Of a stretch of DNA of 64,000 nucleotides, positions 161 through 33,210 are shown one piece after another. This DNA comes from Marsupella aquatica. Lineage: Eukaryota; Plantae; Marchantiophyta. A program made the translations under genes and the position numbers. The notes beneath the pieces are model-generated. The model was not told the DNA's origin. It saw only the letters and a program-made list of their open reading frames with translations, and searched no databases. The stretch covers positions 5,995,878-6,059,877 of the forward strand of contig OZ316892.1 in the NCBI GenBank assembly GCA_973895155.1, in the 5' to 3' direction. Position 1 is the stretch's first letter, and each line of letters begins with the position of its first letter.

Positions 161-1118
161 TGAAAGGAGTCCTTTCCGTAGGATGGGGATCGGAGATCGG
201 ATCATGGAGTCTCTGGCTAGTAGTGCGAGCCCGTTTCCACATTTTGGTGCATCCGGCGCTGTGAGCGATACTACAAAGGGTTAGAACTATTTCACACTAC
301 TCTTCCCTAAGTACCGTTGTTTCGGGGTTTGACACGATTGTGCTGCCTGGAGTTGAATGTTTCAGGTCGAGTTTACAGTTCGCCAGGGATATCAATCGAA
401 GTTGTACGTATATGGTCCATTTGGAAGAGGATCATAGAGGTCTTAATAATGTCTATCTCGCTCTCTACAGGGACTGCCAGGAGAGCTTTCTGTAACATGG
501 GGATGAAATTTCGAATCATGGAGTCTTTGGCAAAAAAGAGCCTGAGTAAGAAAATTATACTTTCTTTAAGCGCTGTGGATGATGCAAAGGGTAAGAAAAC
601 TCGTCTCTTTAAGACATGTTAATTTGACATGTGCTGGCAGACTTCCTATCGATCATCTATTCAGCTATAGTGCCGGAGGGATATAGAAGTTGCAGGGGTT
701 CTTCTCTGGATAGATATTTTAATCTCGCTCGTTTTTACATACAACAGGGTCTGAATGGAGAGCTTTCTGCAAGATGGTGATCCAGTGTGATCGAGTCATG
801 GAGTCTCATGCTACTGATAATAGCCTAAGTGGTAGAAAATGCTTCCGTTTCCAAATTTTGGGGCATGCCTTATGAGCGGTACAAAGAGTAAGAACTCTTT
901 CGAGCCTAACTATTCGTTTCGGCAACTTGAAATGCGCTGGTAGGACTTCGATCTGTGGAATGTAGTGCTCTAATTTAGATTGTCCGAGAAACAAAGTTGT
1001 CGGTTTCAATTAGCTCTGGAGAAGCATAGATGCTTAAATATTTCTTTCCCACTCTAAACAGGGTCTGAAAGGAGAGCTTTCTGTACGATGGGGACCGAAA
1101 ATCAAATCTTTGAGCCTC
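161..1118 (+). repeat. Degenerate ~300-bp tandem repeat (4 copies); the last copy contains the dioxygenase start codon
   Basis: Core GGAGAGCTTTCTG..ATGGGGA..ATCATGGAGTCT recurs at ~165, ~480, ~757 and ~1071. Confidence 0.75.
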
Positions 1119-3326
1119 TGCAGGATCTGGAGTTCAGCACCCCTTCCATTTTTTACGGCAGGGATCCTACGTTCGTCCTAGAGCCACAGTTTCGACCAAC
1201 AACGAAACACAATGATTTCGTAGAGCCTCTGGGCGACCAAATTCCTAGTATTGACCTTTCCCCTATCCATCAAAAGGATGCCGAAGGTTTGAAGAAGCTT
1301 GTTAAAGAAGTAGAGAAAGCAGCTCAGGAGTGGGGTTTCTTTGAAGTCGTAAATCATGGAGTACCTCTGAGTCTGATTGACACATTGGAGAAGGAGGCTC
1401 TGGCCTTTTTCTCATTGCCACTTGATGGAAAGAGCAAAATTCTCCGAACTTCTGAACGACCTTTCGGGTACTTTTATCAGGAGCTGACGAAGAATCGCAG
1501 AGACTGGAAGGAGGTGTTTGATTTTCTCGTCAAAGAGGGTGTCTCCTTTTCAAGCGCGGATGGTTCTCTTGACGTGCACAGGATAACCAGCCAGTGGCCA
1601 GAAGAACCAATAGGCCTACGGTATTGAGTCTGATCGATTTCTCGTAATTTTGCTCTGATCTTCGTTCTGCTCTTGTGTTGGACAGGAATTTTAAATTATA
1701 AATGCCTGGCTTGCATTTTGACGACAAAGTTCATTTTGCTGACCTTGAGAAGTTTAATATAGTTGCAGCTAACTGTTAATCCCTAGTTTAAAACTCACAT
1801 GAGATTGTTCTCAGTGTGACCTATATATTTATATAGCTAATGGCAATATAGCAAAAGTTGGGGTCTAGGTTTGTAGAGTGAAGCATGATTCTAGAATTAC
1901 ACCAAAATTTATGTGGATGAAAATAATGACATATTATGTATATCCAATTGAGTATCATGATTAATTATTTTTTTCGTCATTTCTTACTATTAATTCAATC
2001 TATTAACCTGGGCATTCAGGCTCGTATAAAACTCTCAATGGTGGTATAAAGTACTCTCAATGGTCAGGGAGCTTAATATGGTTGCGTCTTTGCGTTGGGC
2101 TGCGATGACTCAGACAGTACGTGAGTATTGGTTTCCTTGCTAACTAAGGCGTAACTTTGCTGAGCAAAAAGAAACCTCTTGAAGGCTAATTGTGTCTCAA
2201 GCGAGTACGTTGCTCGTCATTCTTGTTCAGAGATGCCTGCCAGCAATACGCACGAGCAACAGAGAAATTGGGTTTCGAGCTGTTGGGCCTTCTCTCTCAG
2301 AGCCTTGGTTTGGGACCAGAGTATTTTCACAAGCACTTCAGCAACCAAACCTCTTCTATCCGTGTAAACCACTACCCACCTTGTCCAATCCCGGACCTTG
2401 TCCTCGGGGTTGGCGGGCATAGGGATCCGACTGCTCTCACGATCCTAGCGCAGGACAAGGTGGGAGGTCTTCAAGTGAGACGCAAGGATGGAGAATGGAT
2501 TGGGGTGAAGCCCAGGGGCAATGCATTCGTCATCAACCTAGGTGACCAGTTTCAGGTATTACGCTTGCTGTTTATTATTTGGCTGTGTGTTCAGCAAACC
2601 ACTTAGACTGAAAGATCTCCAGGACTTTTATCTATGTGAACGTCAGAGAAACATTAGAGTTGCATGGTCAATGAGAATACCTTTCCAAAAAAGCACTTTC
2701 AGTCCACAGTTCTCAGAGTGCATGGTATGCCGGTATACTTTAGAGAGAAGGTGTACATCTTTAATGGGCGTCCTTGCAACTTTCCACTGACCGACCAGTG
2801 TAACAATTTTCTAGTGCGAAATGCTTACTTTAATGCAAATCGTAAACAACATTCAATTGGGAATCCAGAGTGCTAGCTAGCTTTTCCCTGGACGTTGCAA
2901 TAAGAGTCCAGGGTTTTAGATTCTGCAATTCTGGCGGTATATATGGACGATCTCGTTTTTCATCTCGAACATCTTACACTATATAAAGAGACTTCATTTG
3001 TGCATGTTATTACATCATCTCAACTTTCAGAGAGCTTCTACCACCCTGCATACGTTGTCCTCTCGATCTTGCAGGTCTGGACCAACAAGAAGTACCGCAG
3101 TATTGAGCACCGAGTGGTGGTGAACCAGAACTACGCAAGGCTCTCGTGTGCGGTTTTCATGGGTCCTGGAATAACAACAGACGTTTATCCTCTACCAGAA
3201 TTGCTGCAAGGCCAGCCGCCCAAGTACAGTCGCTACAATTACGGACACTTCATCAGCAGGAGGGTGGCAGGGAACATCCAGCAACTTGCAAGGACGGTTC
3301 AGATAGATGACTATGAAATCAATTAA
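1088..3326 (+). CDS. 2-oxoglutarate/Fe(II)-dependent dioxygenase (plant DOXC class), 3 exons: 1088-1620, 2231-2555, 3075-3326; 369 aa
   Basis: IPSIDLS and WGFFEVVNHGVP (DIOX_N), DWKEVFDF, NHYPPCP, Fe ligands H-R-D...H and RLS 2OG-binding motif; GT-AG junctions join in frame (533+325+252=1110 nt). Confidence 0.95.
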
Positions 3327-3660: not shown

Positions 3661-4822
3661 AACTATTGTGTTTGAATTTTCCTTTTCTGTGGGGTTTCAT
3701 CTATTTCCCTTCAATAATCTTTTTATTTTCAAAAAGGGAAACTGTCCCACCATTTATTCCAAACCAGCGGGAAAAAACCATGACGCCAATTATTAGATGG
3801 GTAATAGGAAGAGCCTTAAAATGTGTCATCCAGGTCAGAGTGGCCGCAAAGCCTACTCCTGCAGGTTGTCCCCTTGTGAGCAGGACTCCCCCCCCCCCAT
3901 TTGCACACCTAGTCATATAAAAGGCCCCCTGGCCTGCCAGGCTACTGTTCATTCCTGCATGCCAGAAGTGAATAGTGGAGCCTAGTACCTTAAAACGTGG
4001 AGCTCACCTTTAAAAGTTTTCCTTAGCTAGATATGCACATCTAAGAGCTACCTCTTAAAAATCCGATAAAGACATCATCAAGGCAACTTGCATTTGTCTT
4101 GTTTTGAAAGATATGACCCTAAAGAGGAGTCTGGCTTCTTGGGGACTTCTTTTGACTGGCTCATTTTTTTGGTTTATGGGACCTTTACTGATGCTCCCAT
4201 GGTCCCCTTGACCCATTCCGCTTCTGTGGACCGTGATATCTTTCACACCCTCACTCCAGGGAATTGGCTCTTCTTGGGCTCAGCAAATTGAAGCAATTTA
4301 GAAAGCTGTTTCCAGCAAGTTCATATTTCTAGTTTTCACAAAGAAATGCACAACTAGATTTTGTTGCGTCGGATGCTAACAATACCTCCTCATAATCGTC
4401 GTTAATATAATTTACGACTTCCATGACTACGTTTATAACTACGTCCGATGTAACTAAGATGTCAGAGAAATCTTAGTGCCCATTGCCCCCATTTTAACAT
4501 CGCTGGAAACATGTTTAAAATTAACGTCTCTGGATGAGCTGTCCTAAACGTCGTTCTGGTCGTCGTTCAATATTAACGTCGTAGTCGAGGACGTAATGTG
4601 TTTAGGGTATCACGACGTCAATGTTTACGTCATAAAGGGAGCCGTTAAAGTGGTAACGTAGCTCTGTACAACGTTCCAAATGAATCAAGCCATGTTAGAC
4701 GTTGAGTACATTGGTGTGGCTGACTTGAATGAGGAGTAGTCCATGCTGACTCGAGTATAGCTTGGGTTTTCTACGGGAGGATTTTGGTTTAAGAGTGCTG
4801 AGACCAAAGTAGGCTTGCGTTT

Positions 4823-5445
4823 GTGATTTTTGGAGAATGCACTCTTCCTGAGTACAGAGAAATTGCAATGTGGGATCAGTGTTCAGTCATGGTGCGCAAG
4901 TTCTTCAAGGATGTGCATTGTTGCTTCCTTCCACTTGGTGAAGAGGACAAGACTATACATGGGTTCTTTTGTCGGGGAGGTGTTATTGAGAAGTTGTGTA
5001 CGAAACAGACTACTTGCTGGCCTATACGTGGAAAAACGTTGTTGAGCACTTCAGTGACTACCATGGATTGATCGAGCACTTTGCAGAGACAGTTCATTTC
5101 ATTTCTATCCGTTGGGTAGAGTGCTCAATTCTGGCCAACAAACAGTTGGATCCAGGAGACTTCCTGCTGCATCCAGGTGATGATCAGATGTTGGATGAGG
5201 CGCCCAACCCAGATGATGGGGAGGCATATCCACCTACATTGCCCAAATGTGAGCTGTCTCCGACTGAGCTTCACATTGTCTTGTATGATTACAAGGAAAG
5301 TTGTGCAGCTGAGGTTGAGGCTGAAAGGCTAAAGACTGGGGAAGAGGTCGTCCGGAAGAAATGGAACCAGAGGCAGAGGCGTGATTCTTACAAAAGAAGG
5401 AAGGCAGATGAGGAGTACTACTGGTCTGGTGAAGGAACTCCTTAA
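4823..5445 (+). pseudogene. Frameshifted ORF of unknown function inside the CACTA element, convergent with the transposase
   Basis: Overlapping ORFs 4823-5071 and 4996-5445 have protein-like composition and lie between two ACGT-rich noncoding blocks; no domain recognised. Confidence 0.45.
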
Positions 5446-5971
5446 GTAGCAACAATCTGGATGTCAGTGGATGAGGCAGTTTAGTGATTCGGCTAGGTTA
5501 TAGTCGCTTTGTGGTGGACATGCAATACAGTGCTTTGTAGGACCTTTGTATCTCTATATCATACTGAATCTGAATAAAGACTCCCTCATGTTTTTCATTT
5601 TGAATGCATGTGCCAATTAATGTCACCACTGTCATTAACGTCGCACGGATATATTTATATAGTAACATTGCAATACATGACGTCTTTGGTTTAATACGTA
5701 CCCTAAAACAACGTAAGTTAGTGTAACGTCGTTGTATGTGGAGAATCAACGTCGTGTGGAATAAAGTAAACTGGGTCGTGGGTAAATTAATGTCGTTTAG
5801 GGCTCAATAAAATGACGTTAATTGGAATTAACGTCTGCCTAGTACGACGTAGTTTGTAGATACATTGGTCTACCAGACGTAGTAGTCATACAACGACGTT
5901 ACCCACAAATGCTACAAACCCACATGAAGGTGGCCATAACGAATATATACATGCACTGAATACATTTATGG

Positions 5972-8900
5972 TCATGGATCCATATCATCTACAATTACTG
6001 ATACCATCAAACCCTTCCTCCATCGTGGGAAGATGGGAATGACGATGAACCATCCTCTCATAGTGTGCATCGGAACCATAATACACTGATCCACCTGGCT
6101 AGGAAATACTATAGTGTCACTAACCTCAGTCCCGGATGGTGCTACACGAGTCGTGTCTACCCGATAGAACCCACACTCATCTTTCACCATGGTGGCTCTA
6201 TGTGGAGGTGACATGATGGATTTGTGCCACCGCACCTCTAACACAGTAGTATTAAATGACCCAAAGTGAACGTCTAAAATATCCAATACAGTGCCACAAT
6301 AGGGAATCTCAACATCACCTGGGTCTGTCAACATGAACACTCCTGAGTTACATGTACTCTTCTTCATGTGATCTGTCCTCCAAGTGCGAAAGTGGTGCCT
6401 TGACTCATACATGTGTGTATGGGTCGTTGCCCACAACCCTGGTCCCCTAATGATGTTCTGTACATCAATGGGAATGGATAAGGGTCCATGCTCTGCAAGG
6501 AGCCTATCCATGCGCTCCAATGCCCATACGCAAAATAATGCACACCGTCGTGGAACTATCGGTTGCTGCTCCAAGAATGCACTGCAAAAAATGTATGAAT
6601 CCATGAGAATATTGCACAATCCAAAGAAGTGCTACTTGAACCCACTCTAACTTCTACACACATAGAATGTAGAACAACATCTACTGTTAGATTAACATAT
6701 ATAGAGAGTTGCATATATGTACCTATGCAACTCCCTCCACTGAGACATCTCTGGGCGATTTCCCAACACATAATTGTGGATATGTAGGCGAAGTATGTCG
6801 TCATGTAGTGAACGCTTTTTTGATGCACCAATCAAACGCAACCCACCATTGTCATCATCTTGTGCCTCTTCCCAAGCTGTGGGAAATTCTATGTCCAAAC
6901 TCCCTATCATCCCTCCGGAATAAAAGAGGCACTCCGACATGATATACCCCGTTGCCATACTTCCCTCTGGTCGAGCTGGTTGACGCACCATGGACTTGAG
7001 CACTTTCATGAAGCGCTCTACCCAATACATCCAACGTGCATGGATAGGACCAGCAATCGCGACCTCATCCACCAAGTGACATAGTAAATGCAATTGCATG
7101 TCAAATATGCATGGGGGAAACACCTTCTCCACATTGCACATCACGCGAGCTGACCTCTCCCTCATCAAAGGAATCTCAGACTCCTTTATCTCCTTAGTGC
7201 ATACCCACCTATGTTCCTCCTCAAAACCATCAAAGATTTTGTATATCAGATCCAAATAGGGCCATAGAAAAATGAGTTTGAAATACTTGTTGAATTACAG
7301 GGCTCCTCCAGCGGTAACAAGAACTTGCAAGAGAGCAATGGGAGAGATTTTGGTTATCATACCTGAAAATGGAGCACATCTCATATATAGTCAGACGGAG
7401 TAAACGACGCTCCCGAGAATCATCACAACAACACAAGATTGCTGGTAGCACATGTTGTATCAACTTGTGATAATCATGAGACTTCAACCCTATTGGGGGT
7501 ATGTGATCATTCCTTGTAGTGCACCCACAAAAACCAGCTCCGTAATGGCTAGGGAACTTCATCTCGCTTATCATCCCATTCATGTCCCTCAAAACCTCTC
7601 TTGGCAAAATCCAAGGACCAGGAGGTTTCTCCCCAGTACATGTTATCCAACAACTCTTCACTACTCCAACCCTCTCAGCATCCTCTCGGACTCCACGAGT
7701 GTCATTCGTCCCATAAATGTGCTTCACCAAGTTCTTAGCAACATTCACTTCAATGTGCATGGGGTCCAACAACCATCGAACCTGGAGTCTCTGGAAATTG
7801 AAATAACATATTGAATCAGTTGCAATCTCTAAATTAAGCATTTTATTGGTCTAATTTGCTGTAAAGGAACCATGCACTTCTATCACTTACCCTCCAATAA
7901 GGCGAGTCCCACATAGCTAAGCGTCGGTTTACTCCACAATCCTTGGGTTTCAGTAACTTTGCTTCCACCTTCTCTGCCATTTGAATTTGTCCTTCAGCTG
8001 AAGGGCCATTAGGACATGGCCGCACTTCAGTCTCTGCCCAATGTGTTGTGTTTTGTCGCAAGTGGTCATCCATTGCCAAACGGACCCTACTGCTCTCATA
8101 TGTGGTTTTGTGCAGTAGTCTTGAGTACCTCCCACGCAACTCTGGGCCACATGAAGGGCAAGCTGAAAAACCTGCCACCTTCAGGCCAGATATTGTCCCC
8201 GTACCTGCCATTTCATTGAACCATGTTCAGACCACAAATAACCCCAACACTTGCATTGTACATGACATTGTGCAAACAATAGCCATTGGGTTGCCCAATG
8301 AATTACCTGGACCATCTGTGGTGCAATGAGTGATCATCACCCTCATATTGAAGGTCCTGCCATTGCCTGCTTCACGAGTGACATCTGTTGTCACTGCTCC
8401 AACCTCCCACAGATTATGTAGCTCTTCATAAGCTGGAGCCAAACAGATATCAGGATTCTTACGGGCCTTGGGTCCAGGAATTATAGCTAATAGAAGCACA
8501 TGACCCTTCTTCATTGCCAACCATGGAGGGATGTTCTGATTTATCAAAAGAACAGGCCAGATGGACTTAGGCTTCCGTCGTTGTTTATATGGGTTCACTC
8601 CATCGATTGCCAACCCCAAACAAACATTTCTTGGCTCCTGGGAAAATTTGGCCAAGTGGCATCAATGTGCTTCCACGCTGGACTATCTTGGTGGTATTGC
8701 ATTATCCCTGGTGGGGATTTGTTCTCCACATGCCAAGTCTGTAGTGTGGATAAGTGCTTTTGTCAGTAGAGATGCTGAAGTCGGGGAGTGATTGGGAAAT
8801 AACAAAAAACCTGCCAGATCCAATGTAACGTCGTCAATTCGACGACAATCACACTAAACGTCCTTCCACACTACGTATTATTAAAACTAACATCATGGAG

Positions 8901-11642
8901 GGCAACGTTTCTTACATATGATGTACCATGCAACGTTCGTTACTGCATCTCATACGACATAAAAACAAAAAAAATGTCAAGTGGAAAGACGTAAATTGAG
9001 ATGGACGACATAAATTAATCAATTACAACGTCATGTACGATGTTGTTTGAAAGAATGCAACGTTAAAAGTCGGACTTTCTTGTTCTCACATTGCGTTGAG
9101 GAAAACATTACCTTTTCTGCAATCTTGTCTCCAATGGTGTCTGGTCGATACCGTGGAAGCCTACAGTGCTCCTCTGGGCAGTGAGTGTGATCCTTGTACA
9201 CCCCTCTATACAAGATGCACCCACCTGGGCACATGTGGATAGTCTCTAAAGCCAATCCAATTGAGGCTAACAACTTTTTAGCCTCCCTCACACATCCAGG
9301 GAGAGTGTTTGGTTGGGGCAAGAGTTTGTCGTGGAACAATTGGAAGAGTGCATCTGTATGGACATCCGAACCATTGAAAACTCCTTGCAAATTCAACATC
9401 AACAAAGTTGCACCCAACCTGGATTTGCAAAACACAAACACCAGACTTTTTGCAGTTAGTCCAAGTAGCTAGATGGCATGCTTGGCACTACAACTTAGAC
9501 TGCCCAATATTCACTGGATGAAATTCCAGAGTTGTGATAATTTTAGGACAACCTTACCGTGAGGATGGAGATCCCTCAAATAGTGGTGTTCTGGCTTCAG
9601 TCTCCAACTAATCCCAATCTTCTTGATCCACTTCCATGATAGGGTGCTCGGCGTCAGGTGCATGAGGTCCAAAGTGAATGTCAACAAGGTGGGCAAAGGC
9701 ATCTTCTTCAAGCATAGGGTCATCTCCCTCATCTCCCTCATCGTCAACATCATCATCCAACTCTCCATCATATGCATCATGGTACTCCTCATCCTCATCG
9801 TCCATCTCATCATGGTCAAGGGGCCAGCGACCCTCAGCATCCTCCTCGTCTGAGAAATGTAAGGTGGCATGTACGTGAAAGGCACAGGCTGATGTAGTCA
9901 TCATTGATGGGTCAGGTGTGGGAGTAATATGTACACCATCCTAGAGTTTTCAATATGCAATAACAGATCACAATTAGAGAAAGGGTTTCCGTGATAAAGC
10001 TTACAATGAAACATCAATAATGAAAAATGCAAGGGTCACCCCATAATGGATATGTCATGTACACATGTAAACATCAATGCCAATCATAATCTACAAGAAT
10101 CTCTTCCCCTGCTCTAATGGTGCGGGTAGCATGTGTCAAGATGTAATGCGTGCATGCTATAGGCAAACAAGGGCGACTCTGGTCATGGTTCCAACTCGTG
10201 CCACTCAGCGTTTGGCCTAAACCCTAAACGCCGAGAACCAATAGTGTTGTTGATGTAACTCACCAAGTTCCCCGTGCGAGGTGGGTAACCATCAATATGA
10301 GCATACCTAGGGTCCAACTTTAGTGACATGCCATATCGACTAAAGGTTGGGCACTGTCGGGACAAAATGCGCCATCTCGCGGCCGAATACTTGGGCCCAT
10401 AGAATGGAAACAACTGAGGAAAATCATCGGGTGCACAACCGGTAGGGACCACGATATCCACAAGAGAAAATACTCCAAGTCCTACATGAGTCCCCAATGT
10501 GGAGGGGAGGATGACCCATGGGCGGTCCCAAAGTATAATAGGCTCCCGAAGCGGGAGGTCCATAGGGAGTCCAAACTGGGCTGGGAAGGAGTCCTTTAAG
10601 ATGTCCAAGGCTCTCCCTCGCAACTATCTCGGTGCCCGGGACACCGATGCATCAAGAAAAGGGCATCGGGGCGGAACAATCCTAGGTGGACGGGACTCAA
10701 TCGATCGGGGTCTAGTGGTCACCACTACTCCCCTCTCAATAGGGTGCATCCTAAACACTCTCCTCCTCCTATGAAATACACGGTCTATCTCCCTCAATGT
10801 GGCTGGCAAATCGGATGGATGGATGAGTGGTGCGAGTGCACGATATGCAATGTCTCTCAAGCGGTCCACAGGCAAAGATCGCACTACAATAGGAATCGGT
10901 TCCACATGTTCACCAAAACAAGTTCAGAATATGACAATCAAAAAATAATTCAAGGAAGGAGATGTTATCATAATTGCAATACCCAACAAAATTGTATTAC
11001 CTCTCGGGTCGGGGGGGTGTAACAACCATGGATCCCTAAATGGCTAAGGACAGTGGTCCTCTTGTGTAAGACAACACCCTTGCATCGTCTGCAAGGGCAA
11101 GGCATCTTGCAAACTTGCCCAATCCCCTGAAGAGCAGCCATGGCCTCTCCAAATCCATCAGCACGATGGGGGCTCCGGCCTCTACTGCCCTCGGAACGAT
11201 GTCTACGTCGATGACGCCTGGATCGGTGACGCCTAGATCGATCATACATGTCTGGTGAGTAATCTCTCTCTCGGTCCGACAGGTTGTCTCTCCCCCTATG
11301 ATGATGGTCATCTCTGCGTCGGGTGTAAGTACCCCCACCATGGTCCTCATAGGATGAGTCATCCCTCCTCCTCCCTCCCTCGTCATCCCTCCTCTGCCGC
11401 TCGTCATTGCTCCTATAGCCCGATGAAGCTGAACTCCCCCTATGCCGATGATGGTGTCTATGTCGGTGAGAACTACAGCCATGCTCATCGTCATCATCAC
11501 ACGAGTCATCCCTTCGCCTATCCGACTCATCATACGTCCCCCTATGATGATGATGGTATCTGTGCCGACGATGCCTGCCCCCATCATGGTCCGATGCATA
11601 GGTTGCCATGTCCTTTGTGATCAAATTTACAAAGGCCCCCAC
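5972..11642 (-). pseudogene. Multi-exon CACTA transposase (TnpD/Tnp2-like), disrupted by stops and frameshifts
   Basis: CPCRRCK..VLSHL (transposase-associated domain); CPGGCILY; YFPITPRLQHLY; EPRNVCLGLAIDGVNPY (Transposase_21); LDPMHIEVNV; GLKSHDYH; WMYWVERFMKVLK..PEGSM (DUF4218); FPSQVDQC (DUF4216). Introns 9941-11000, 9419-9557 and 8811-9111 splice in frame. Confidence 0.93.
10074..10905 (-). pseudogene. SET-domain lysine methyltransferase, decayed, nested in transposase intron 1
   Basis: GLGVFSLVDI, FYGPKY, IDG..TGNLVSYINN..PN, and after a frameshift ATRTIRAGEEILVDYDWH* (ends 10074); in-frame stops at 10624-10626 and 10183-10185. Confidence 0.85.
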
Positions 11643-12037
11643 AACATATTAAACCCCAAGCATAAACGTGTCCCGCTACGTTAACCAAACTAACGTCCAT
11701 CCAAACGACGTTCTTCTCAAATTAACGTTGTTGTTTAGGTTGCGGGGAACAAGCCAAATTTAGTTTACGTAGTTACGTACGACGTACAACGTACTTAATA
11801 AGTTAACATCGTTTGGTATGCTATAATTATGTGTAACATCGTGACTAAACCCTACACCCCTGGTTAACGTTGTGATTAGCGACGTTAAATTAGGGTAACG
11901 GCGGGTCTCCAAGGTTTGTGGGCTGCGGCTGTTTTCCTTTAACAAAACATCGGGAAGTGACTCGAATGTGACTCACATTCAACATTCAACACTTCCCCTC
12001 GCCCCCTCTTGACCTCCTATCTTAACAGTGAGTGACT

Positions 12038-13942
12038 ATGGCTCATCCAAGCTATCTCCCTTCCAGTGGAGATTTTGATGCAGACTTGGTGGCTATGGAT
12101 GATCCAGGGGAGTTAGAAAAGGTGCGTAAAGCTATGCAATCGACACATTTGCTGATACATGCTTTCAACCAGAGTTGGAAGTTCTTGGGAGGAAAAGGAA
12201 GCAAGGAGTCTCAGTTTCTGGAGTACCTGGAAAATATAGAAGCCAATGCTCCTGCCCTCGATGATTATGTGGAAACTAAGAATGCAAGGCTCTTGGGGGA
12301 GGGTGGGGGGCCTTCGATTGATGCTCTCAACTCCTTCCCGTCCCTACTAGATGATGGGTGGGACGATCCTGCCTTCAATGGAATGCAGCCTCATTCTCAG
12401 GCACCTAGTGGGACCCCAATCAAGAGCGTGGTCAGGGTAGCACATGACAAATTCCAACCTGATCAGGATCGGGACTCTCGCAGCCCGGGTCTCGCAGGCG
12501 GAGGAGGCATCGTGATAGAACACACAACAACAATAGCAGCCTTGATGAGAGAAGACGGAAGGGGAAAGGGAAGGAGTATAGAGATGCAGATCCACACAGA
12601 GGGAGATGCAAGGGCAGATAGAAGAGAGAGGTACTCACCTCAGCGTGAACGTCACTCCCACAAAAAGCGACAACCTTCTCCTGTGCGACCTGTAACTATT
12701 GCTGTGAGTCGAGACAAACTCCCAACCATCACCTTGGATGCGTTTGATGCTAGGCCGGATGTTCTGGATGAGAAGGCCCTCACAAATCGAGTGCAGACGT
12801 GTTGTGCCAAGCATTGTCCTGGTTGGACAACTTGGAAGGATCTCGCCCAGAACCCAAAGAAGTTTCAGCTCCTCCTAAACAATGTACAAGCTGGGTTTAG
12901 GAACGGCCGTGAAATAGACTATAGGCACATCAGACAGAAGATCGTAGGCTACCTTGCAGATCGGAGGTTTAGATGGAGAAACAAGGTTAAAAAAATGAGA
13001 TGCCCAAGGACAGAGCAATACCTGAAACTAGATGGAATGAGCGACGCCGACTTCAAGTTGATCGTGGCTGAGTTGGAAGCAGCACCTGACACCCCAATAG
13101 GCAAGCGAGTGCACATGGGGGACAAAGCTGCTGCAGCCCGCAAATCAAATGGCCGCCTGCGTGTGACCAATTTTTGGGGCCAGGGAGGATGGCGAGGCTT
13201 CCTTGCAACCTATGTAAGTCCCCCACCCTCTTCAAAGCACAGCTTGTTCATGCTTCGGCCGCTGCGGTGAGAACATTGAATTAACGTCATTTTTCTCCTC
13301 TAACATTGCAAGTTCTCAATTTTATGTCTACCCCCTATGTTCACCCTACCTAACGTCGTCTCTCACGATGTTACATTTAATTAACGTCCTTTGTGCATTG
13401 TTAATATGGCGGTTCCACTATAAACAACATCTTGGACGACGTTAATTAGGAAACGTCGTTATGTACAATCATTGTAATTAACGACGGTGGTAACGACATT
13501 CTACAATTTCCTGTAGAAATGCAAGTTTGGAGCCAACGCCAAGCCAAGTGAGCAGGAGCGGCTCTATTCAAAACACTATGGCCCGGAGGCCCTATGGGCT
13601 AAGCTGGACTCTGTCCCGGAGGACCACCCAGTGGTAAGTTACATAGTCAGGTTAGGTTCCTTCTATACTAAGTTTTGCATCCACTATTTGCAGGGAGGTA
13701 AACTGATCCCTTATGTCATGTGCAGGAGGATTGGAGTCCTCCAGAGGGGTTAGTGGCACGGCCCATTGCGAAAGATGAGGAGGCAGATCATGGAGGGGAG
13801 GAGCCTGATACGCAGGAGGAGGCCTTAGTAGACTGTGGGCAGGAGGGCAGTTTAGGTACACACGGCCGGTCATCTTCTGACCTCTCCCCTCCAATGGAGA
13901 CTGATAGGGGTCATACCAACCATAGACGACGGAGAGAGAGAA

Positions 13943-13975
<33 letters not shown>

Positions 13976-14238
13976 AGAGGGGGGGAGGGAGGGAGAGACA
14001 TAGAGAGAGGAAGAGGAGCCGTGTCAAGAGGGATACCACTAGGGGACACAGTGGCACTAGAGATGTAGTCCCCAGGAGTAGAGGCAAGGGAGCTGCGGAG
14101 TTGGTGTCTGGTAGTAGTAGTTCAGACGAGGATCCACTTCGGTACGAGTTGCGGCCCCGAGGCAAACAGTCGGAGGCACCGCCACGTATTTCTGTTCACA
14201 GGTCTGGACGTGATAGGAGCCGCTCTCAGTGGCATTAG
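12038..14238 (+). CDS. Second CACTA gene (possible TnpA-like accessory protein), predicted exons 12038-13213, 13517-13633, 13726-14238; ~601 aa, intact
   Basis: Long ORF with GTAAGT donors at 13214 and 13634 and TAG/CAG acceptors, all phase 0 with no stops; basic helical region, NFWGQGGW motif and R/E-rich tail. The TnpA-like call rests on position within the element. Confidence 0.7.
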
Positions 14239-16987
14239 GGTATACCATGCATGACTAGGTGGACGTCCACTTGCATTTTGTACATTTTTGGCAAAAACTT
14301 TTGACGCCACCCATTTATAGTGGCATTCCGGACTTCATATGTCTATTTTATGTGTATTCCGAGTGTATATGAACCTAAACCTAAAGCCCACCCAACTAAG
14401 GTAGCCTAGAAGGATGTTCCATACAAGATTAATGTTTACCACAAACGGCACTCCATTCACATCTCTCCATTCTTGGTACTATTTTCAAATGTTCTCGTTA
14501 ACACCATTTTTACCAAGCCTCACACGACTTACTACTCATACGTCCTGGACAGACTCATCATTAACAAAGTCACAAACTACGTAATATTAATCTGACATTA
14601 ACGTCGTTTTAAATGATGTTATCTGCTGATTTGCCTGTTCAATCTGCGTCCAGAATAACATCTTTACTTACGACGTTAATATGTAACGTAGTATGTACTG
14701 ACGTATGTAACGACATTTTGGACGATGTAAACTGTAACCTTTGTTACTTCGTACAAAACGTGCCCTGATTCACGTCGAGTGTGTCGCCTTTCTTTAGCAG
14801 CAAGGAGACATCGGGCTTAACGCCTTCATGTAACATGTAAAAAGTCCTGATAATGTAGTTGTGATGAGAGAGCTGTGAATTTCTAAAGATCGCTCCACCA
14901 CCCAATGTCCACACTTTTTGTTTTCAAAAGTTTTTTAACGGTAGCGACATTTGGTATATCTCTCTATGACCAATGGAATATTACTTTCTTCGGTTGCTAG
15001 ATTCCCAGGTATGCAACTCCCCTTTTTATAAAGCAAGTTTTTAATTCCTTATAATGGCCTTATATCCTAGAGCTCATTTTAGTCTACTAAAGTCTTGTAC
15101 CTTTCAACTCAAGGAATCCAAAAATGTAACTTAAAAAAAAACTGAACATGTTTTGATATATACAAAGTCCATCAAAACCAAATTATATGGATTTTTTTTT
15201 AATACAGGGGTGTACAGCCAAACTAGCCAACTTTTTAGGATTTTTATTAAAAAAAATTAAATCTTTTAACAAAAACTACAACACGTATAGGAATATTTTT
15301 TAATTTCATATGGAAAAAGAAGAGAACCAAACCTTTTATATGACTTGACAAATTTGGTAATTGTGATCTAGAGCCCTCCTTTCCAAGTCTACTACTGTAG
15401 GAGGAAGTAGAGCCTTGATACAAGCTAGCGCCGCAATTGGGCCAGCAAATTTAACAAAGAACTCCATGCAATCAAATAATATGTTGGGCAATGCATAGCA
15501 AATAAAATAAGTAAATGAGGGCCAAAAAGAAGTATTGTGCAAGAATGAATCACCTTGCCACAACAATTTTCCCACACACAAAATTGGAAAAGAAAAGAAA
15601 GTTCATCTCACCTCCAAACATGCATGTAGGAAGGTGGGAGGTGGATCAAGGGCAAGGATTCATCTTCAGTGGTCCCATGAATTTGACCCAAACCCAAGAG
15701 AAAATAATAATACCACTCCCATCCTTCCAACACTATTGAAAAGATAAGAAAATCAGGAGTAATAAACCAACAAAGAAACCTAAACAAATCAAAATTCATC
15801 TATTCTCCACATCATAATTCTCCCACCCATGCTTCATATGTATACTTTCAATGTTATTAGTTAGGTACAACCATGAGATATAGGTGTCCCAATAGGTGTA
15901 TCACTTGTAATACTGGGGTAATATCATATTATTAATATATCATGGTACAACCATACACTTATCTCCTATTTTAGTAGTATCTCCCCAAAAGGTTATAGGC
16001 CCACTGTAGGGCAGCCAATAAGCTGGGAGTAAAGGGTTTTACTATTTATGGGTTTATGTTTTCTGGACAACTTCAGAGCCGGAGTGCAAAAAACGATTGC
16101 TAAATACCCATAATCTCTTGTCCAGAAACTCTTGATCAATAACTTTTTCCAGGTCAGTTATTACATACTATGAAGGAGGTCTGGGGCAGGGGTTCTAGCC
16201 TGAACTGTGCTCCCTTAATGCTTGGAAAAGCTTCCTGCATGGCTGCCACCGTCCAGCATTTACTCACTTCAAACTATTACTGGAATTGTGAAAAAGATTG
16301 GAAAATCTTGTCCAAGAATGCAATAGCCCTGTACCACATTTTTCCATTGTTTTATTGAATCAGATTGAACCATGTTTGTATTCTGATTATTTCTTCAATC
16401 TAAGTGAACAATGGGGACCACTCTCTAAGCCTAAGTATTCCTCAATCACCAATAGCACACAAGTACTGTGAGGGAAAGGTGAAAGAACCCTCATACCTGC
16501 TACTAACCCCAGCCAATATGTGCTATCCTATACATAATTCCCCCTGTCAAGAAAACAGACCCTGCTTGAGGACCAGCACACAATCCTAGCAATCACAAAA
16601 AAACCTCAACAGTGCATTTGACAGTTTTATTTTGTTGGCTCCTTTCAATTTTGTCTATTCCAATAGTTGATATATTTCTTTCTGACAGCTCAAGTGCCTA
16701 GGATATGTCCCTCGTGAGTTGGTTCAACTTTGGGAGGTGTGTCACCTGTGGCCTGTGACACATTTTATCTGTATCTTTACATCTTCCTAGATTTTAGGAC
16801 AACCATTGCAAGTAAGCTAAAGAAAACTCTTATCTACTAAACAAGTATAGGGGTAGTAAGGGAGATGACTAATTTTGTCCAGCTTCTTGCCTTTGCATAA
16901 GTAGCCACCCAAAATCTTGGTAACAAGTTGGCAAAAAATACACACTGTCTAGCTACATTGAACATTAGAACTTGACCCTAAAACCAC

Positions 16988-20400: not shown

Positions 20401-20989
20401 ACACATGCTCCCTGCTCTAGTAATCTATCTTCAGCTATCAGTTTCTAGCAGTAGAATGTTCAAGATAAGCCAATGCTTATGAACGACCGACAGCATGGCT
20501 GCCTCTATGTGAGATTGGTGCTGGATTAGTGATAGTTGTGTCTTCTTCCACCCTTTACCCTCCTACTGTCATCCAAGTTTCCTTAATGAGATATTGCTAC
20601 AATACTTTCCTCGGAATGCATTCTTTCGGACTAATCGTGCGTTCGTTATGCGGAGTCGTTGGTTGAGGAAGTTCCAACCGGTTCTGCTGTACGAGCTTGT
20701 GTAAGGAAGCCACCCTTGTCTATGATTAAGTCCCTTAAGATAAATGACAGGGAGATCGTGCGAGCGTTGCAAAATGCTGAAGCGCTTCTTCAACGCTGGA
20801 AGTGAGATAGGGAATGGATGAATGAGTGGAACTTGATTTTACAAGGTCTTAACTAGATACAGCTTTGATGTGGCTTTTAGAGTATGACCAAGTCGTGGCT
20901 CTGTTGTCCTGTAAAAAACTTTTTGCTACGAATCGACGGTGATGAGGAATTTGGTCCAGTCATTTTGATTTTAATATGCTTGGTGGCGG

Positions 20990-21883
20990 ATGGTGGCTCT
21001 TGTGATGAACGTTGACCTTGGTGTTATTTTGGGTGCTTCCCTCCAGTCCTATAACAGCATGCGGGAGCTAGTCCACGTTCTTCTGCGAGTTCTACCATGG
21101 CTCATGACCACAGTTTCTGCCAATGTGATTCACTACTTCTCATTATTGATCGCCAAAGAAGAAGCCCACAGGCAAGTACTAGAAGCTGCAACTCCCACGA
21201 CTGGCAGACGTGGGAGATGGTACCCGGGAAGTGACCCCGAGGAGCATGAGCGCCTGTCGTTTGATCTGATGAACTCTCCAGCCATGAGAAAGGCAAGGTA
21301 CCTGGTCAAGCTGGTTCGCTACGGATGCACCTTATTGTATGTCGCACTATTTTGTGACTTTTTGCCAGAGCTTAGCATTGAAACTTTCTCCCCTGGATTG
21401 GGCACGATAGAAGCACTTGTTGTGGGAGTGCTGGGTGGATTGGTGACCTTGTATTTGAATGAGAATGGGGACTTTGATATAAGGACTTGTTGGAGACCTG
21501 ACGTGGACTTTGGCTCCGAGTTCTGGGGTTGGCTATGGGATGGTATCCGGATTGCTGGGGCGTTTGCCACTCCAGTTGAGGATTCACTGATGTATCATTC
21601 CTGGATATACAGGTCACTCACTTGTTATCTTACAAGAAACTCATACAACAGTTTCATAGACGTTCCATTCTTGGATTGGAATTGGGTAGCATGCATTGCA
21701 TCAAATGGCGTGTTTGCTTTGTATAATGGGAAGGAGTGGCGGAGCTCTGGGTTGATAGGAATTCTCTCATTGTGGGTTACAAGCAGGAGAGGCCAGTTGC
21801 TTGATGGAATTCTGGCTCATGGACTCTGTAGAGTGACCATCAGTACCTGGGTTTTGTATACCGGACAACGGCAATATTGGTGA
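20990..21883 (+). CDS. CPBP/Abi (CAAX prenyl protease II)-like membrane protein with degenerate catalytic motifs; probably the last exon of a longer gene (candidate acceptor at 21047)
   Basis: Hydrophobic segments; PVEDSLMYHSWIYR (cf. EExxxR), VFALYN (cf. FxxxH), DGILAHGL (cf. HxxxN); upstream exons not resolved. Confidence 0.65.
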   Translation: MVALVMNVDLGVILGASLQSYNSMRELVHVLLRVLPWLMTTVSANVIHYFSLLIAKEEAHRQVLEAATPTTGRRGRWYPGSDPEEHERLSFDLMNSPAMRKARYLVKLVRYGCTLLYVALFCDFLPELSIETFSPGLGTIEALVVGVLGGLVTLYLNENGDFDIRTCWRPDVDFGSEFWGWLWDGIRIAGAFATPVEDSLMYHSWIYRSLTCYLTRNSYNSFIDVPFLDWNWVACIASNGVFALYNGKEWRSSGLIGILSLWVTSRRGQLLDGILAHGLCRVTISTWVLYTGQRQYW

Positions 21884-26892: not shown

Positions 26893-27793
26893 AAGTGTTT
26901 GGTTTTGGTTTTTATTTTTTATTTTTGGTTTGTTTTTATTTGTTTGTGTTTTGTTTTGTGATTTTTTAAGTTTTTTTTGTGTTTTAAACCTTAACCTTAG
27001 AGCCAAATGGAGGGATATAAAGAAACACTTGTACGCACACGCTTTGAGCCTCGGTTCAGTTTGCGATACTCCGTACAAGAATTTCTTAATATCACCTTAA
27101 CAATTTAGTCTCCTTTGTTCATTAAGTAAAACATTTGCGGAGATAGAGGAATCCATGTACGCATGCTTAGAGTTTTGGCTCGGTCTGCGATACTTTGCAT
27201 GGATACCACGATTCGTCGAGAATGTTTTTACTTGAATTACAAATGAGTGTTAAGTTATAGACACCAAATCACATATGTCGAAGCAGGAATATAACAACTT
27301 TGAAAGAAAAGAACACTTTTGTGCGCATGCTTTGAGCGTCCACTCGGTCTGCGATATTTCACAAGTGTTGTCTTTCTCTTTTATTGTTGTTATATAGAAA
27401 GGTAATTAAAATCATGTGTGCAATAAAAATACATAATGCATGGGAGAAATAAACCGGGAAAAGATAATAACAATACGACTTGTAATTTTCAGGTTGGTCG
27501 TTGAATCCTTATTGGAAGGATTTTATTTAAATCCCAGTAAGATCTTGTTCCTCCCTCACATATTCCTTTTGTGAAGGGAAAACATGGTCATCGAAAATTT
27601 TAGTTTAGAGTATAGGCAAGTGTTGAAGATGATCACAAAACATGTGAATGAGGGATATGAGCCGAATCTTGTTGCTCTGGATGCATTGAAGAACGCTCGA
27701 AACACTCTCGAACATGCTAGGAATTCTAGCAAAGTGGCCGGGAAATGAAAACGGAAGGGGGCAAACGAAGAGGCAAAACAGGTTCGACACAAT

Positions 27794-29239
27794 GTGGTAG
27801 TGTCGATATGGAAAGAGATACTTTATCGCTACACTCAACCGAAACAGTATGGGGTGGACGGGTTCGAGAGGGAGTTCACAAGACACGGAGAGAAAGGATA
27901 CAAGAACTTTCTTGGTGAGATAACCCGTTGTATGCGGGAAAGTGTACAAAAGGAGGACAATTTCACACGAGAGCAAATGAAGTCATTTGAAGATGAAACT
28001 GAGAAACCGGGAGGATTTCTGGAAAATTTGGCACTCAACTTGGAGAAGCATGTTTGGGATAATTTGGCAGCCAAAGTGGAAGAGGGTGACACTACATTGC
28101 TTGGAAACCCCGGGATGTACACACACAAGAGAGAATTGCTAGTGAAGTGGAGTAAGGAGTTGGCAATGGCAAAATCTGATAGCAATGTCAAATATGCTAA
28201 CGAGATTGTGCACTTTGGGGATGTCAGCATCAAAAGTGCTCGAAAAGGAACACGTCCATCGCGTGTAGTTCCAGAGGTTAGGAGTATCCATTTTCTTAAA
28301 CCTGAGCAGGTGCACAACACACGTCGCATTGGGAAAGGAATCCAAGGAGAGGTATACACTTGTCGTATATTACATTGTCCTCTCATTCCCGTCAACGTGA
28401 CCTTAGTCGCAAAGCGGTTCAAGGATGGAGACAAGCATAAGAGACGAACTGACGCATTACAAGAAGTGCTTATGGGAGGACTGAATCATAAGGGAATCGT
28501 TGGAGCTCTTGCGTTGACTATTGAGGATCCGCCAAAACTTATTTACGATCACTATAATGGAGGTGACTTGGGTAGCTTTATTGATAAGTGCAGCATATCG
28601 TCAAAGAGCAAGGGGAAGGCACAGATCACGATGGACCTTGATTTCAAGTTTATTTCGGAGAAGAAACTCTTGTTGGAGAACCGGTTGGGAATCGCCTTGG
28701 CTTTGCTGGAGACACTGCAATACTTGCATGAGCATGATCGATTTCATTGTGATCTTCACTTTGGAAACATCCTTCTTCATTTCGATCACGAGCACGATGT
28801 GGCTATTAAGGTGTATGTTGGTTTATGTGATTTTGGCTTGTCTAAGCATAAATCACAGTGCAAATTACCAGCTAATCGGATGTGGCCCACAGCAACAGAA
28901 AAAGCAGCAACATACCAAAAACAATTTCCACAGTTGGCTCCGGAGCTTGTTCAACCTACCCCTGTCGAGTTTAGTGAAAGTACCGATATATATGCTTTGG
29001 GGAATATTTTTGAGACATTGTTGACAGAGAATTGGGATGGAATGTCTAAGGGTTCACGGTTTTTGGGGAGGGGTTGGAGTGCACAAGTGCATGGCCCCAA
29101 ATTGGATATCATAATCAGTGAAATGATGGCCACGGATGCCAAGAAAAGAATGGATTGTGCTTTTTGGAGTTTGAAGATAGTTCGAATGTTTCCAGATTGC
29201 ACATTGCATTTGCACAACAGTCCATATCTTAGAGATTAG
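27794..29239 (+). CDS. Protein kinase (ePK fold) carried by the hAT element; N-terminal extension broken by two in-frame TGA
   Basis: IGKGIQGEVY (Gly loop), VAK, QE (helix C), HCDLHFGNILL (catalytic loop), DFGLS, LAPEL, DIYALG; intronless; the frame extends upstream past TGA at 27746 and 27572. Confidence 0.88.
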   Translation: MVVSIWKEILYRYTQPKQYGVDGFEREFTRHGEKGYKNFLGEITRCMRESVQKEDNFTREQMKSFEDETEKPGGFLENLALNLEKHVWDNLAAKVEEGDTTLLGNPGMYTHKRELLVKWSKELAMAKSDSNVKYANEIVHFGDVSIKSARKGTRPSRVVPEVRSIHFLKPEQVHNTRRIGKGIQGEVYTCRILHCPLIPVNVTLVAKRFKDGDKHKRRTDALQEVLMGGLNHKGIVGALALTIEDPPKLIYDHYNGGDLGSFIDKCSISSKSKGKAQITMDLDFKFISEKKLLLENRLGIALALLETLQYLHEHDRFHCDLHFGNILLHFDHEHDVAIKVYVGLCDFGLSKHKSQCKLPANRMWPTATEKAATYQKQFPQLAPELVQPTPVEFSESTDIYALGNIFETLLTENWDGMSKGSRFLGRGWSAQVHGPKLDIIISEMMATDAKKRMDCAFWSLKIVRMFPDCTLHLHNSPYLRD

Positions 29240-29419
29240 GGTTTACACAATTTTGTAAAGGTCACCTTAACGATTATATGTTTATTCATTGTATGTCAAT
29301 TACAATGTTCTGCATTTTGTTGATAATATTCTATCAAACTTTGTCGTGAATGCCCAAAATTGTGCTAAATGTGTTTGTACATTGTCAAATATCGCAGATC
29401 TTTTGTACACATCGCAAAC

Positions 29420-31879: not shown

Positions 31880-33210
31880 TATTGCTGCTACGGCCAATGA
31901 CATTCATGCACATGCGAACCGAGGCCAACGCCTACTCCTTTGCCCACCGCAAAAATGGGCCCTCATTACAACTTGAAGTTGAACGGAGTTTATTTGAGTA
32001 CGAGAGAAGTTCTGAAAGCAAATGCACTCTCAGGTCAAATTTTCAGGTCCTTCGAGCAAAAAATTACTGAGTATGTCATCGATCCGTTGGTTTCACAACT
32101 TCTCTCGTACTCAAATAAACTCTGTTCAACTTCAAGTAGCGTAGCTGCTACGACCAATGACATTCATGGGCATGCAAACCGAGGCCAACGCCTCTACATT
32201 TGCCTACCCCAAAAATGGGCCCTGATTAGAACTTGAAGTTGAACAGAGTTTTTTTCATTATGAGAAGGTTTATTCAAGCAATGGCACTCTCAGGTCAATA
32301 TTTCAGGTCCTCCTGACTTTGTTATTATTGAATATGTTCGTGCTCCGTTGCTTGAATAAATCTTCTGATAATGAAATGAACTGACCAATTACTGGAGTAC
32401 GGCTGCTACGGCCTATGACATTAATTCGCACAATTGCATGTTTATATCCTCTCCTTTCCGAATTCCAATTCGAGCTTGGACATCCTCTCGTCAGCTGGTC
32501 TCCACCATTGCAGTTGCTCTTCACGCAAACCAAGATAGCAGTCTCTAGAATCCTCGAACCTATTTTATTTCAATGCATCATTCATAGTGTTTGAGGAATC
32601 CAGAGGTTCGCATGAGGAGCAACTGAAAGGGTGGAGACCTGCTGACGAGAGGGTGTCCAAGCTCGAATTGGAATTCGGACAGGAGAGGATATAAACGGGT
32701 GAACTTTGACTTGAAATTGGTGACTGTATTTTGCGTCTGCATATCAATTTGGTGACCGATCTTGCGGAATCCCCGTGACCGTGTCTGATCATCATCATGA
32801 CATTGCTCTCCTTGGCCACCAATGGGCCCTCATTACAACTTCAAGTTGAACGGGGTTTATATGATTATGAGAAGGTTACTGATTATGTAGGCGATGTGTT
32901 CATTTCACAACTTCTCTCATAGTCATATAAACTCTGCCCAACTTCAAGTAGTGCAGCTGCTACGGTCAACGACATTCACCCACCCCAAAAATGGGCCCTC
33001 ATTACAACTTCAAGTTCAACTAAGTTTATTTTATTACGAGAAGGTTTATTCAAGCAATGACATTCTCAGGTCCAATAATGAGGTCCTCTCGACCTCATTA
33101 TTATTGAATATGACGGTGCTCTATTGCTGGACTAAATCTTCGCATAGTGAAATGAACTAACCAATTAATGGAGGGGGCTAGTATGGACTACGGCTGCTAT
33201 GGCCAACAAC
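31880..33210 (+). repeat. Internal dispersed/tandem repeats between the convergent cargo and transposase genes
   Basis: GCTGCTACGGCCAATGACATTCA and AATGGGCCCTCATTACAACTT.AAGTTGAAC recur at ~31884, 31953, 32144, 32213, 32402, 32821, 32956, 32989. Confidence 0.8.

Follow-up and report, generated by a model that had tools for sequence, protein, structure and literature searches.

In flowering plants, transposons have been shown to counter silencing in a sequence-specific way: VANC proteins act at the internal noncoding DNA of Mutator-like elements and TnpA acts at the ends of Spm elements. The motifs bound by VANC21 lie in introns as well as in intergenic and terminal regions (PMC5735166). TnpA recognises motif clusters specific to its family and, via host glycosylases, brings about CG hypomethylation; the Arabidopsis TnpA^Spm1 is reported to do both at the termini only (10.64898/2026.08.24.746577). 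TnpA-like proteins are reported to be restricted to flowering plants. Here we describe a transposon of the liverwort Marsupella aquatica, lying within a stretch of 64,000 nucleotides that was analysed as a whole (the window), which carries clusters of a spaced palindrome (the dyad) at both ends and in four internal noncoding blocks. Our reading, to which we assign a probability of roughly 0.5, is that these are TnpA-like sites which have spread in the style of VANDAL elements for anti-silencing. In the open-access literature (bioRxiv supplements and figures, perhaps relevant to other Spm families, being outside this scope) no description of dyad clusters in the interior of a CACTA element came to light. 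The element, its ends and its genes are:

4349..14863, no strand assigned: EnSpm/CACTA-superfamily DNA transposon of 10,515 bp, a decayed copy of a multi-copy family
4346..4360, forward strand: left target-site duplication ATG (4346-4348) and 12-bp terminal inverted repeat (TIR) with a CACAA start
14852..14866, reverse strand: right TIR (14852-14863) and target-site duplication ATG (14864-14866)
5972..11609, reverse strand: transposase gene, about 8 exons predicted from open frames and splice consensus, with premature stops in the window copy
10077..10890, reverse strand (same as the transposase): SET-domain reading frame in transposase intron 1, with one stop and one frameshift in the window copy
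12038..14238, forward strand: ORF2, 601 aa, exons 12038-13213, 13517-13633 and 13726-14238; candidate DNA-binding accessory protein
4802..5448, forward strand: ORF3, a protein of some 215 aa or longer and of unassigned function; start not fixed, frameshift near 5001

The EnSpm superfamily is recognized by CAC..GTG termini with a 3-bp target-site duplication (PMC12730594). The termini of this element fit it in their short TIRs (identical at 11 of 12 positions), their CAC..GTG ends and the ATG duplicated on either side; bases 4 and 5 are AA and not TA, and the ends thus read CACAA in place of CACTA. The left junction is spanned without a single difference by a contig of sequencing run X1 matching 4000-4378, and piled-up contigs from four public runs cover the element. 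The decay of this copy is evident in the stops of the transposase and the broken SET and ORF3 frames, and it is the one copy that was read base by base. Pattern searches for related loci gave 88 matches in metagenome contigs with the SET alignment as query, 29 with a transposase exon and 27 in viral contigs, with 0 confirmed in each case.

The transposase matches the Pfam models Transposase_21 (E 7e-31) and DUF4218 (E 7e-29), along with a Transpos_assoc match (E 7e-4) that falls under its cut-off; its predicted introns at 7235-7360, 7793-7885 and 8207-8300 are where diverged copies skip. Two further frames, both overlooked by the original prediction, accompany it. The broken SET piece of the window itself gave no Pfam match, while all seven of its homologs match Pfam SET (E 9e-5 to 5e-3; two of the seven above cut-off); the best ESM Atlas match of the frame is likewise SET (score 0.97), tblastn also backs it, and other copies differ from the window copy at both breaks. 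Canonical SET motifs usually include an NH pair. Here GxG-like and YxG-like motifs and a final DY can be aligned, with the NH pair replaced by NS or NN. The predicted SET structure was unusable (pLDDT 38), and a search of PDB sequences with the SET pieces and their homologs returned nothing meaningful. In the window copy, the strong donor of exon 1 (at 11000) and the closest SET acceptor differ in phase, and hence a first exon shared by the transposase and SET is not demonstrated in that copy. ORF3 has one homolog, 80% identical, and no Pfam match; a 4-base difference near 5001 was seen in one contig each of runs X1 and X4. Either the SET-domain frame or ORF3 could take part in the candidate site system formed by the following clusters, none of which is assigned a strand:

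4382..4700: left subterminal cluster, dyads at 4412, 4546, 4574, 4625 and 4654; also upstream of ORF3
5634..5903: half-site-rich cluster in the gap where ORF3 and the transposase converge with their 3' ends
8826..9065: cluster in the 296-bp transposase intron, dyads at 8856, 8888 and 9023 (6 by profile)
11675..11904: cluster in the divergent promoter of the transposase and ORF2, dyads at 11691, 11765 and 11865
13280..13501: cluster in ORF2 intron 1, dyads at 13351 (1 mismatch), 13422 and 13479
14562..14792: right subterminal cluster, dyads at 14562, 14599, 14656, 14684, 14696 and 14708

That ACGT-core motifs cluster in these six places, at a density above a composition-matched background, was borne out. 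The words TAACGTC/GACGTTA (16 copies) and ACGACGT/ACGTCGT (15 copies) occur in the element and not at all in the 53,485 flanking bases; all 31 copies fall inside the six noncoding blocks (5, 9, 2, 4, 7 and 4 per block), as compared to a mean of 1.5 and a maximum of 7 in 500 dinucleotide-preserving shuffles of those blocks. The transposase-intron block is the weakest in these 7-mers, its 2 copies being equalled in 21 of 500 shuffles; its 8 ACGT were reached in 4 of 500 and its 3 dyads in none. The predicted rarity of the motifs in exons and flanks also held: half-sites with at most one mismatch number 26 across the 3,526 bases of noncoding DNA, with none in the 6,989 bases of coding sequence and 1 in the flanks. 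In a held-out test, the top six 7-mers drawn from the two terminal blocks alone recurred 49 times in the 1,550 bases of the internal blocks, never in the 898 bases that make up the short introns, twice in coding sequence and 5 times in the flanks, and the four internal clusters match the terminal ones in density. The statement that most noncoding blocks carry the motif is right by length (2,628 of 3,526 bases) and wrong by number (6 of 14 blocks): every block of at least 296 bases has it (6/6) and none of the eight blocks of 69-154 bases does.

Enrichment of ACGT-core words was therefore real, but the original prediction missed the dyad structure, the actual repeat unit being a spaced 23-bp palindrome, TAACGTCGT-N5-ACGACGTTA, rather than a loose ACGT word. 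At a gap of 5 and up to five mismatches, the six clusters hold 21 dyads, which are all of those in the element, and the flanks hold none, this family specificity being measured solely against the other DNA of the window; other gaps from 0 to 15 give counts of 0 to 6. The subterminal repeats expected of EnSpm elements are present, the motif occurring in both orientations with 5 dyads in the left and 6 in the right terminal block. When half-sites were kept and their order shuffled, the 10 observed gap-5 pairs were reached in 0 of 2,000 trials, and 10 pairs at any one gap or orientation in 4 of 2,000. An unbiased scan of 256 words at 25 gaps placed ACGT-N11-ACGT first (10 versus 1.15 expected; P 4e-7, uncorrected for the 6,400 tests). 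With profiles built by leaving out one block at a time, gap 5 was the most frequent spacing in each of the six blocks (6, 3, 6, 4, 3 and 6 hits), and there were 0 hits across 53,463 flank positions. Dyads are few in the convergent block, with one at up to five mismatches (reached in 19 of 500 shuffles) and 3 by profile. At another place in the window, a plain repeat family scores strongly as a dyad too.

The spacers of the dyads vary freely, many half-sites are without a partner, and changes in one arm are mirrored in the other in 10 of 81 cases against 10.9 expected; the fixed 5-bp spacing, the free spacer and the unmirrored arm changes together fit a site for a dimeric protein and not a hairpin. 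Tandem Repeats Finder (TRF) detected 7-bp and 12-bp arrays only, in two clusters. Ten of the 22 dyad-to-dyad distances lie at 24-32 bp, which could reflect old arrays or tight packing.

The CpG content of the blocks sets them apart: the observed/expected ratio is 1.23, as against 0.11 for the short introns, which lack the motif, 0.48 for exons and 0.58 for flanks. Once half-sites with up to two mismatches are masked, the ratio is 0.62 (P 1.6e-4 versus the short introns), and with up to three it is 0.41 (P 0.013); the remaining excess could represent decayed motif copies or the ordinary retention of CpG in promoters. Of the 84 CpG slots in the dyads, 21 read TpG/CpA, which means that the sites have been methylated at times. 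Comparison with other copies drew on 40 tool-chosen rows from 2,177 differences between family and window, 17 in blocks and 23 in exons. Among the block differences, 9 add a CpG in the other copies and 1 does the reverse, as opposed to 1 and 3, respectively, among the exon differences; at recognisable half-sites (9 of the 40) the other copies lie closer to the consensus in 6 cases, farther away in 2 and neither in 1.

The region 12038-14238, originally proposed to encode the binding protein, proved to contain a real gene model with GT-AG introns, and a homolog from Calypogeia fissa covers all three exons. The core of ORF2 (residues ~229-431) is basic (pI 9.7) and predicted to be all-helical, with six helices and a mean pLDDT of 80; it has 12 homologs by full HMMER search, a word-indexed search having yielded 0 among 398 candidates. 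No Pfam family and no decisive fold match connected it with TnpA or VANC: Pfam gave no match for ORF2 even at E 5, nor for the core and its homologs. TnpA is marked by Transposase_24 and two tandem tri-helical HTH units. Among the fold matches near the top for the ORF2 core are Reb1, the P-element transposase, BEN and homeodomain chains (Z 4.5-5.8), the best being a tRNA synthetase at Z 6.0, a range that the tool deems uninformative for helical proteins; the HTH-type matches reach only Z 4-6. Foldseek against the PDB and viral libraries, where TnpA is outside the solved chains listed, found nothing at E up to 0.001, no usable match to the core came from ESM Atlas, and alignment to PDB sequences brought up low-complexity or unrelated matches. 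ORF2 shows no similarity to the last transposase exon.

Accordingly worded, our proposal has parts of unequal strength. Judging by the fixed spacing and the unit common to ends and interior, the part of the original prediction that saw binding sites is supported, since the sites resemble targets of a dimeric protein with sequence specificity; the dyad is quite probably such a protein site. We lean towards the dyad-binding protein being encoded by the element, with ORF2 as the candidate. A dimer of this 601-aa helical protein would bind the arrays in the six clusters, acting TnpA-like at the ends of the element, and its binding would keep the internal promoter, the terminator region and the long introns unmethylated and active, either by blocking methylation or by recruiting host demethylases, as reported for the Arabidopsis TnpA. 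That internal binding counters silencing, a view suggested by CpG retention and by analogy with the Arabidopsis systems, is to us an evenly balanced proposition. That the SET protein of the element acts at the dyad sites is no more than a possibility. A bolder version, in which a CACTA family of the liverwort lineage independently evolved a self-contained VANDAL-like anti-silencing kit, with the ORF2 dimer on the dyads recruiting the element's own SET enzyme, which would deposit protective chromatin marks, and with no sole reliance on host demethylases, appears rather improbable.

Other explanations place the binding protein, or the purpose of binding, elsewhere. The dyads might be enhancers recruiting a host transcription factor, either of the bZIP type, whose sites in plants have ACGT as their core, or of the NAC type, whose dimers typically recognise spaced palindromes of CGT/ACG, and ORF2 is no more than a candidate; we find this decidedly unlikely in view of the 0 dyads in 53.5 kb of flank containing host genes and other transposons, and of the use of the dyad in subterminal arrays, where CACTA elements have family-specific sites for their own proteins. 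Alternatively, an element protein might bind the dyads with the internal arrays serving transposition or autoregulation, through looping and synapsis of the ends or as a roadblock that tunes how the genes for the transposase and ORF2 are transcribed and spliced. This draws on the same gap-5 pairs, scan and profiles, and two clusters do lie within introns of the two main genes; it is nonetheless unlikely, as by itself it leaves the CpG retention outside recognisable half-sites unexplained, and the clusters also occupy the promoter and the convergent 3' gap, which is the VANC layout (PMC5735166).

The internal clusters might also be functionless relics, namely old ends or duplicated subterminal DNA in a composite element. 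Local duplications do occur (a 7-bp unit at 11775-11794, of which one copy at 11782 is missing from other copies, and a 12-bp unit at 14680-14713), and the dyad-like score of the plain repeat family counts on the same side. This origin is very unlikely, given that the longest alignments shared by different blocks are of 13-15 bases, that the arms are kept while the spacers are unrelated, and that the CpG-rich motifs persist where motif-free introns lost nearly all CpG; internal old termini in particular are unsupported, the best internal TIR copy having 2 mismatches in 12 and lying in an exon. Finally, the palindromes might matter as DNA or RNA hairpins or cruciforms. On paper, a stem of 9 bp could close on a loop of 5 bases, and the subterminal repeats of soybean CACTA elements have been drawn as stem-loops in the literature; selection for hairpins is unsupported by the unmirrored arm changes, and with the primary sequence kept and so many half-sites unpaired we hold it to be most improbable.

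If the anti-silencing reading is true, a CACTA family outside the flowering plants has converged on the VANDAL layout, and the SET gene of bryophyte CACTA elements gains a possible address. The exact dyad and a named candidate protein make this reading testable; should binding fail, there would still remain a spread of subterminal repeats into the interior that is unusually well defined.

In comparison to the described systems, the element shares with Spm/En of maize and with the Arabidopsis families of TnpA^Spm1 and TnpA^Spm3 the EnSpm transposase, the 3-bp target duplication, family-specific CpG-containing motif clusters at both ends and a separate accessory gene with a helical core. It differs in that its motif is a dyad of fixed spacing filling four internal noncoding blocks, whereas TnpA^Spm1 reportedly binds and causes hypomethylation just at the termini (10.64898/2026.08.24.746577). 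Its accessory gene is divergent from the transposase, while that of Spm is spliced with the transposase or in tandem (PMC13547354); the named relatives of ORF2 come from a liverwort, and ORF2 is likened to TnpA by its predicted helical core. With VANDAL and VANC it has in common several accessory genes and clusters in introns, intergenic and terminal noncoding DNA that are absent from exons (PMC5735166, PMC10398659). However, VANDALs are Mutator-like, as opposed to its EnSpm transposase and short TIRs, and VANC motifs lie in recognisable tandem repeats, whereas its motif is a CpG-containing dyad, with two short arrays recognised by TRF. HarbingerS and oomycete MuDR are also DNA transposons with a SET-domain gene of their own, but belong to other superfamilies and hosts, with motif clusters unmentioned in the accessible part of the source citing them (PMC12730594). 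The red algal Plavaka, again an EnSpm element, has three accessory genes (PAG1-3), one with a SET domain, and inverted-repeat arrays proposed as sites for an element protein; PAG2 is a SET and DNA methylase fusion and PAG3 a putative 2OG oxygenase that also has a DNA-binding domain, neither of which was seen in the window element, and the Plavaka repeats are adjacent to PAG3 (10.1101/2025.02.11.637652), whereas the dyads of the liverwort element occupy every long noncoding block.

The motifs lie in a decayed transposon of the EnSpm/CACTA superfamily, delimited by 12-bp terminal inverted repeats (TIRs; 11/12 identical, starting CACAA), with ATG adjoining it at both ends. Its transposase, on the minus strand, matches Transposase_21 (E 7e-31), DUF4218 (E 7e-29) and, weakly, Transpos_assoc in Pfam; the gene has about eight exons, as judged from open frames and splice consensus, and carries premature stops in this copy. 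The element and its accessory frames are:

4349-14863: EnSpm/CACTA element
12038-13213, 13517-13633, 13726-14238: exons of ORF2 (601 aa), with GT-AG introns
About 10890-10077, minus strand: SET-domain frame, inside transposase intron 1
About 4802-5448, plus strand: ORF3, convergent with the transposase; one homolog, 80% identical

As the summed contig depth over the element in four public runs is far above that of the left flank (depth not being copy number), and contig matches to it range from <90% to >99% alike, it fits a multi-copy family with subfamilies.

The element carries 16 copies of TAACGTC/GACGTTA and 15 of ACGACGT/ACGTCGT, confined to 4522-14678, and the 53,485 flank bases have none. 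All 31 fall where the original prediction had placed them (5, 9, 2, 4, 7 and 4 per window), namely in the left subterminal block, the convergent 3' gap, a transposase intron, the divergent promoter, ORF2 intron 1 and the right subterminal block, as against a mean of 1.5 and a maximum of 7 in 500 shuffles of these six blocks that preserved dinucleotides and retained the CpG count. The transposase intron is the weakest by this measure, its two copies being matched in 21 of 500 shuffles. Because these words came from the same sequence in which they were counted, we also took 7-mers from the two terminal blocks only and counted them elsewhere: the top six have 49 occurrences in the four internal blocks (1,550 bases), two in coding sequence (6,989 bases), five in the flanks and none in the short introns (898 bases). 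The clustering is real and statistically firm, and the scarcity of these motifs noted for exons and flanks is borne out. The further claim that they occupy most noncoding blocks of the element needs correcting, as it holds for the long ones only: in our gene model (300 shuffles per block) the motif is present in just 6 of 14, comprising every block of at least 296 bases, while the eight blocks of 69-154 bases all lack it.

Within the clusters, half-sites of consensus TAACGTCGT pair as inverted repeats at 5-base spacing, forming a 23-bp dyad. When as many as 5 of the 18 positions may mismatch, the clusters hold 21 gap-5 dyads, with none in the rest of the element or the flanks; other gaps (0-4, 6-15) yield 0-6 each. 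Upon shuffling of half-site order, the 10 observed gap-5 pairs were matched in none of 2,000 trials, and 10 pairs at any gap or orientation arose in four of 2,000. An unbiased scan ranked ACGT-N11-ACGT first of 6,400 word-gap pairs (10 vs 1.15; P 4e-7, uncorrected). Leave-one-block-out profiles, whose training dyads were picked with a consensus built from all blocks, gave gap 5 as the commonest in 6/6 held-out blocks, and no match at any of 53,463 positions in the flanks. Of the six, the convergent block gives the weakest signal, having a single strict dyad.

A dyad score alone is no proof of function, since an ordinary direct-repeat family at 31970-33020 scores as strong a dyad as the element's; it has six copies with a short palindrome, AACTT-N-AAGTT, between RING and hAT ORFs. 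Its surroundings (26123-48348) may represent nested elements. Elsewhere, a ~300-bp repeat (four copies, 150-1120) lies upstream of a dioxygenase gene that ends ~1 kb left of the CACTA insertion. Outside this insertion the window holds:

1058-3326, plus strand: host 2OG-Fe(II) dioxygenase gene (DIOX_N, 2OG-FeII_Oxy)
20975-21883, plus strand: 302-aa ORF, weak Rce1-like (CAAX protease) match, E 0.002
26123-48348: possible 22-kb hAT-type element (8-bp duplication, 11/14 TIR, GC-rich subterminal arrays), containing the next five
27749-29239: protein kinase
29369-31318: RING protein
33446-35771: hAT transposase
36386-40978: two long ORFs, no Pfam match
41466-42224: NSD-like PHD fingers

Calypogeia fissa, a leafy liverwort, is the sole named source of accessory-protein relatives, so a liverwort or other bryophyte is the likely host; the C. 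fissa protein P0004 matches all three exons of ORF2. For ORF2, a search of 1.84 billion representatives yielded 12 homologs (E up to 0.001), and no Pfam family matches it. Its core (pI 9.7) is modeled as six helices (mean pLDDT 80), with fold matches that include Reb1 (Z 5.8, rmsd 3.6, 71 aligned), P-element transposase (Z 5.2, rmsd 3.6, 70 aligned), BEND6 (Z 5.2, rmsd 2.9, 64 aligned) and a homeodomain (Z 4.5, rmsd 3.0, 60 aligned); the top match is a tRNA synthetase (Z 6.0), scores of this size not being decisive for helical proteins. ORF3, which matches no family, is also a candidate dyad-binding protein. Canonical SET motif III carries an NH pair; the SET frame encodes a putative methyltransferase-type domain whose motif III reads NS or NN, without the usual histidine. 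All seven of its homologs (47-66% identical) match Pfam SET, two above cut-off, and ESM Atlas places SET clusters top (0.97). The frame has one stop and one frameshift here, other copies differing at both, and recurs on a contig ~83% alike, a subfamily.

We posit, with a probability of about 0.5, that ORF2, as a putative dimer, recognizes the dyad: at the element ends it would help transpososome assembly, like TnpA, and inside the element it would sit on the divergent promoter, the gap between the convergent 3' ends and both long introns, shielding them from methylation. This putative function is read from one decayed copy. Dyads serving transposition or autoregulation alone seem somewhat unlikely, and their recognition by a host ACGT-binding factor unlikely. 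That the clusters are neutral relics, such as old ends, is improbable: the blocks contain no convincing internal TIR and just two tandem arrays, both short, and the longest alignment common to different blocks is 15 bases. Hairpin action is hard to credit, the deviations in the arms being mirrored in 10 of 81 cases against 10.9 expected; as the spacer sequence is also free, this argues for base reading by a dimer rather than a stem.

CpG observed/expected stands at 1.23 for the six blocks, 0.48 for exons, 0.58 for flanks and 0.11 for the short introns (3 CpG vs 28 expected); once half-sites are masked, the blocks retain 0.62 or 0.41, above the short introns (P 1.6e-4, 0.013). This excess could be the trace expected of long-term local protection, but decayed copies of the motif, or the usual retention of CpG in promoters, could leave it too. 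Of the 84 dyad CpG slots in this copy, 21 read TpG or CpA. Across half-sites (4412-14730), CA fills 15 slots and TG six, small numbers whose asymmetry could mean a reader tolerating thymine, a methyl-cytosine mimic, on one strand. Among 40 tool-chosen family-versus-window differences listed of 2,177, nine of the 17 in blocks give other copies a CpG absent here and one the reverse, the 23 in exons giving one and three, respectively; of nine touching a recognizable half-site, six go toward consensus, two away and one neither. Small and tool-chosen as it is, this sample suggests that dyad sites are maintained across the family and are being lost from this dead copy.

Among known systems, Arabidopsis TnpA is described as binding family-specific motif clusters, with CG hypomethylation via ROS1/DML2/DML3, binding and hypomethylation by TnpA^Spm1 as limited to termini, and TnpA-like proteins as reported only from flowering plants (10.64898/2026.08.24.746577). 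Other work predicts TnpA homodimers and lists split TnpA/TnpD genes in tandem (PMC13547354), treats subterminal repeats (PMC2613891), and records transposon SET genes in HarbingerS and oomycete MuDR (PMC12730594) and in the red-algal Plavaka group within the EnSpm superfamily, which has inverted-repeat arrays as well (10.1101/2025.02.11.637652). Our search of the open-access literature turned up no account of dyad arrays inside a CACTA element. VANC, for its part, is reported to bind in introns, intergenic and terminal regions (PMC5735166, PMC10398659). The element resembles the VANC system internally, yet is not a VANDAL, and the TnpA system at its ends, with ORF2 as a candidate counterpart of TnpA; the element most likely acts like TnpA at its ends and like VANC inside.
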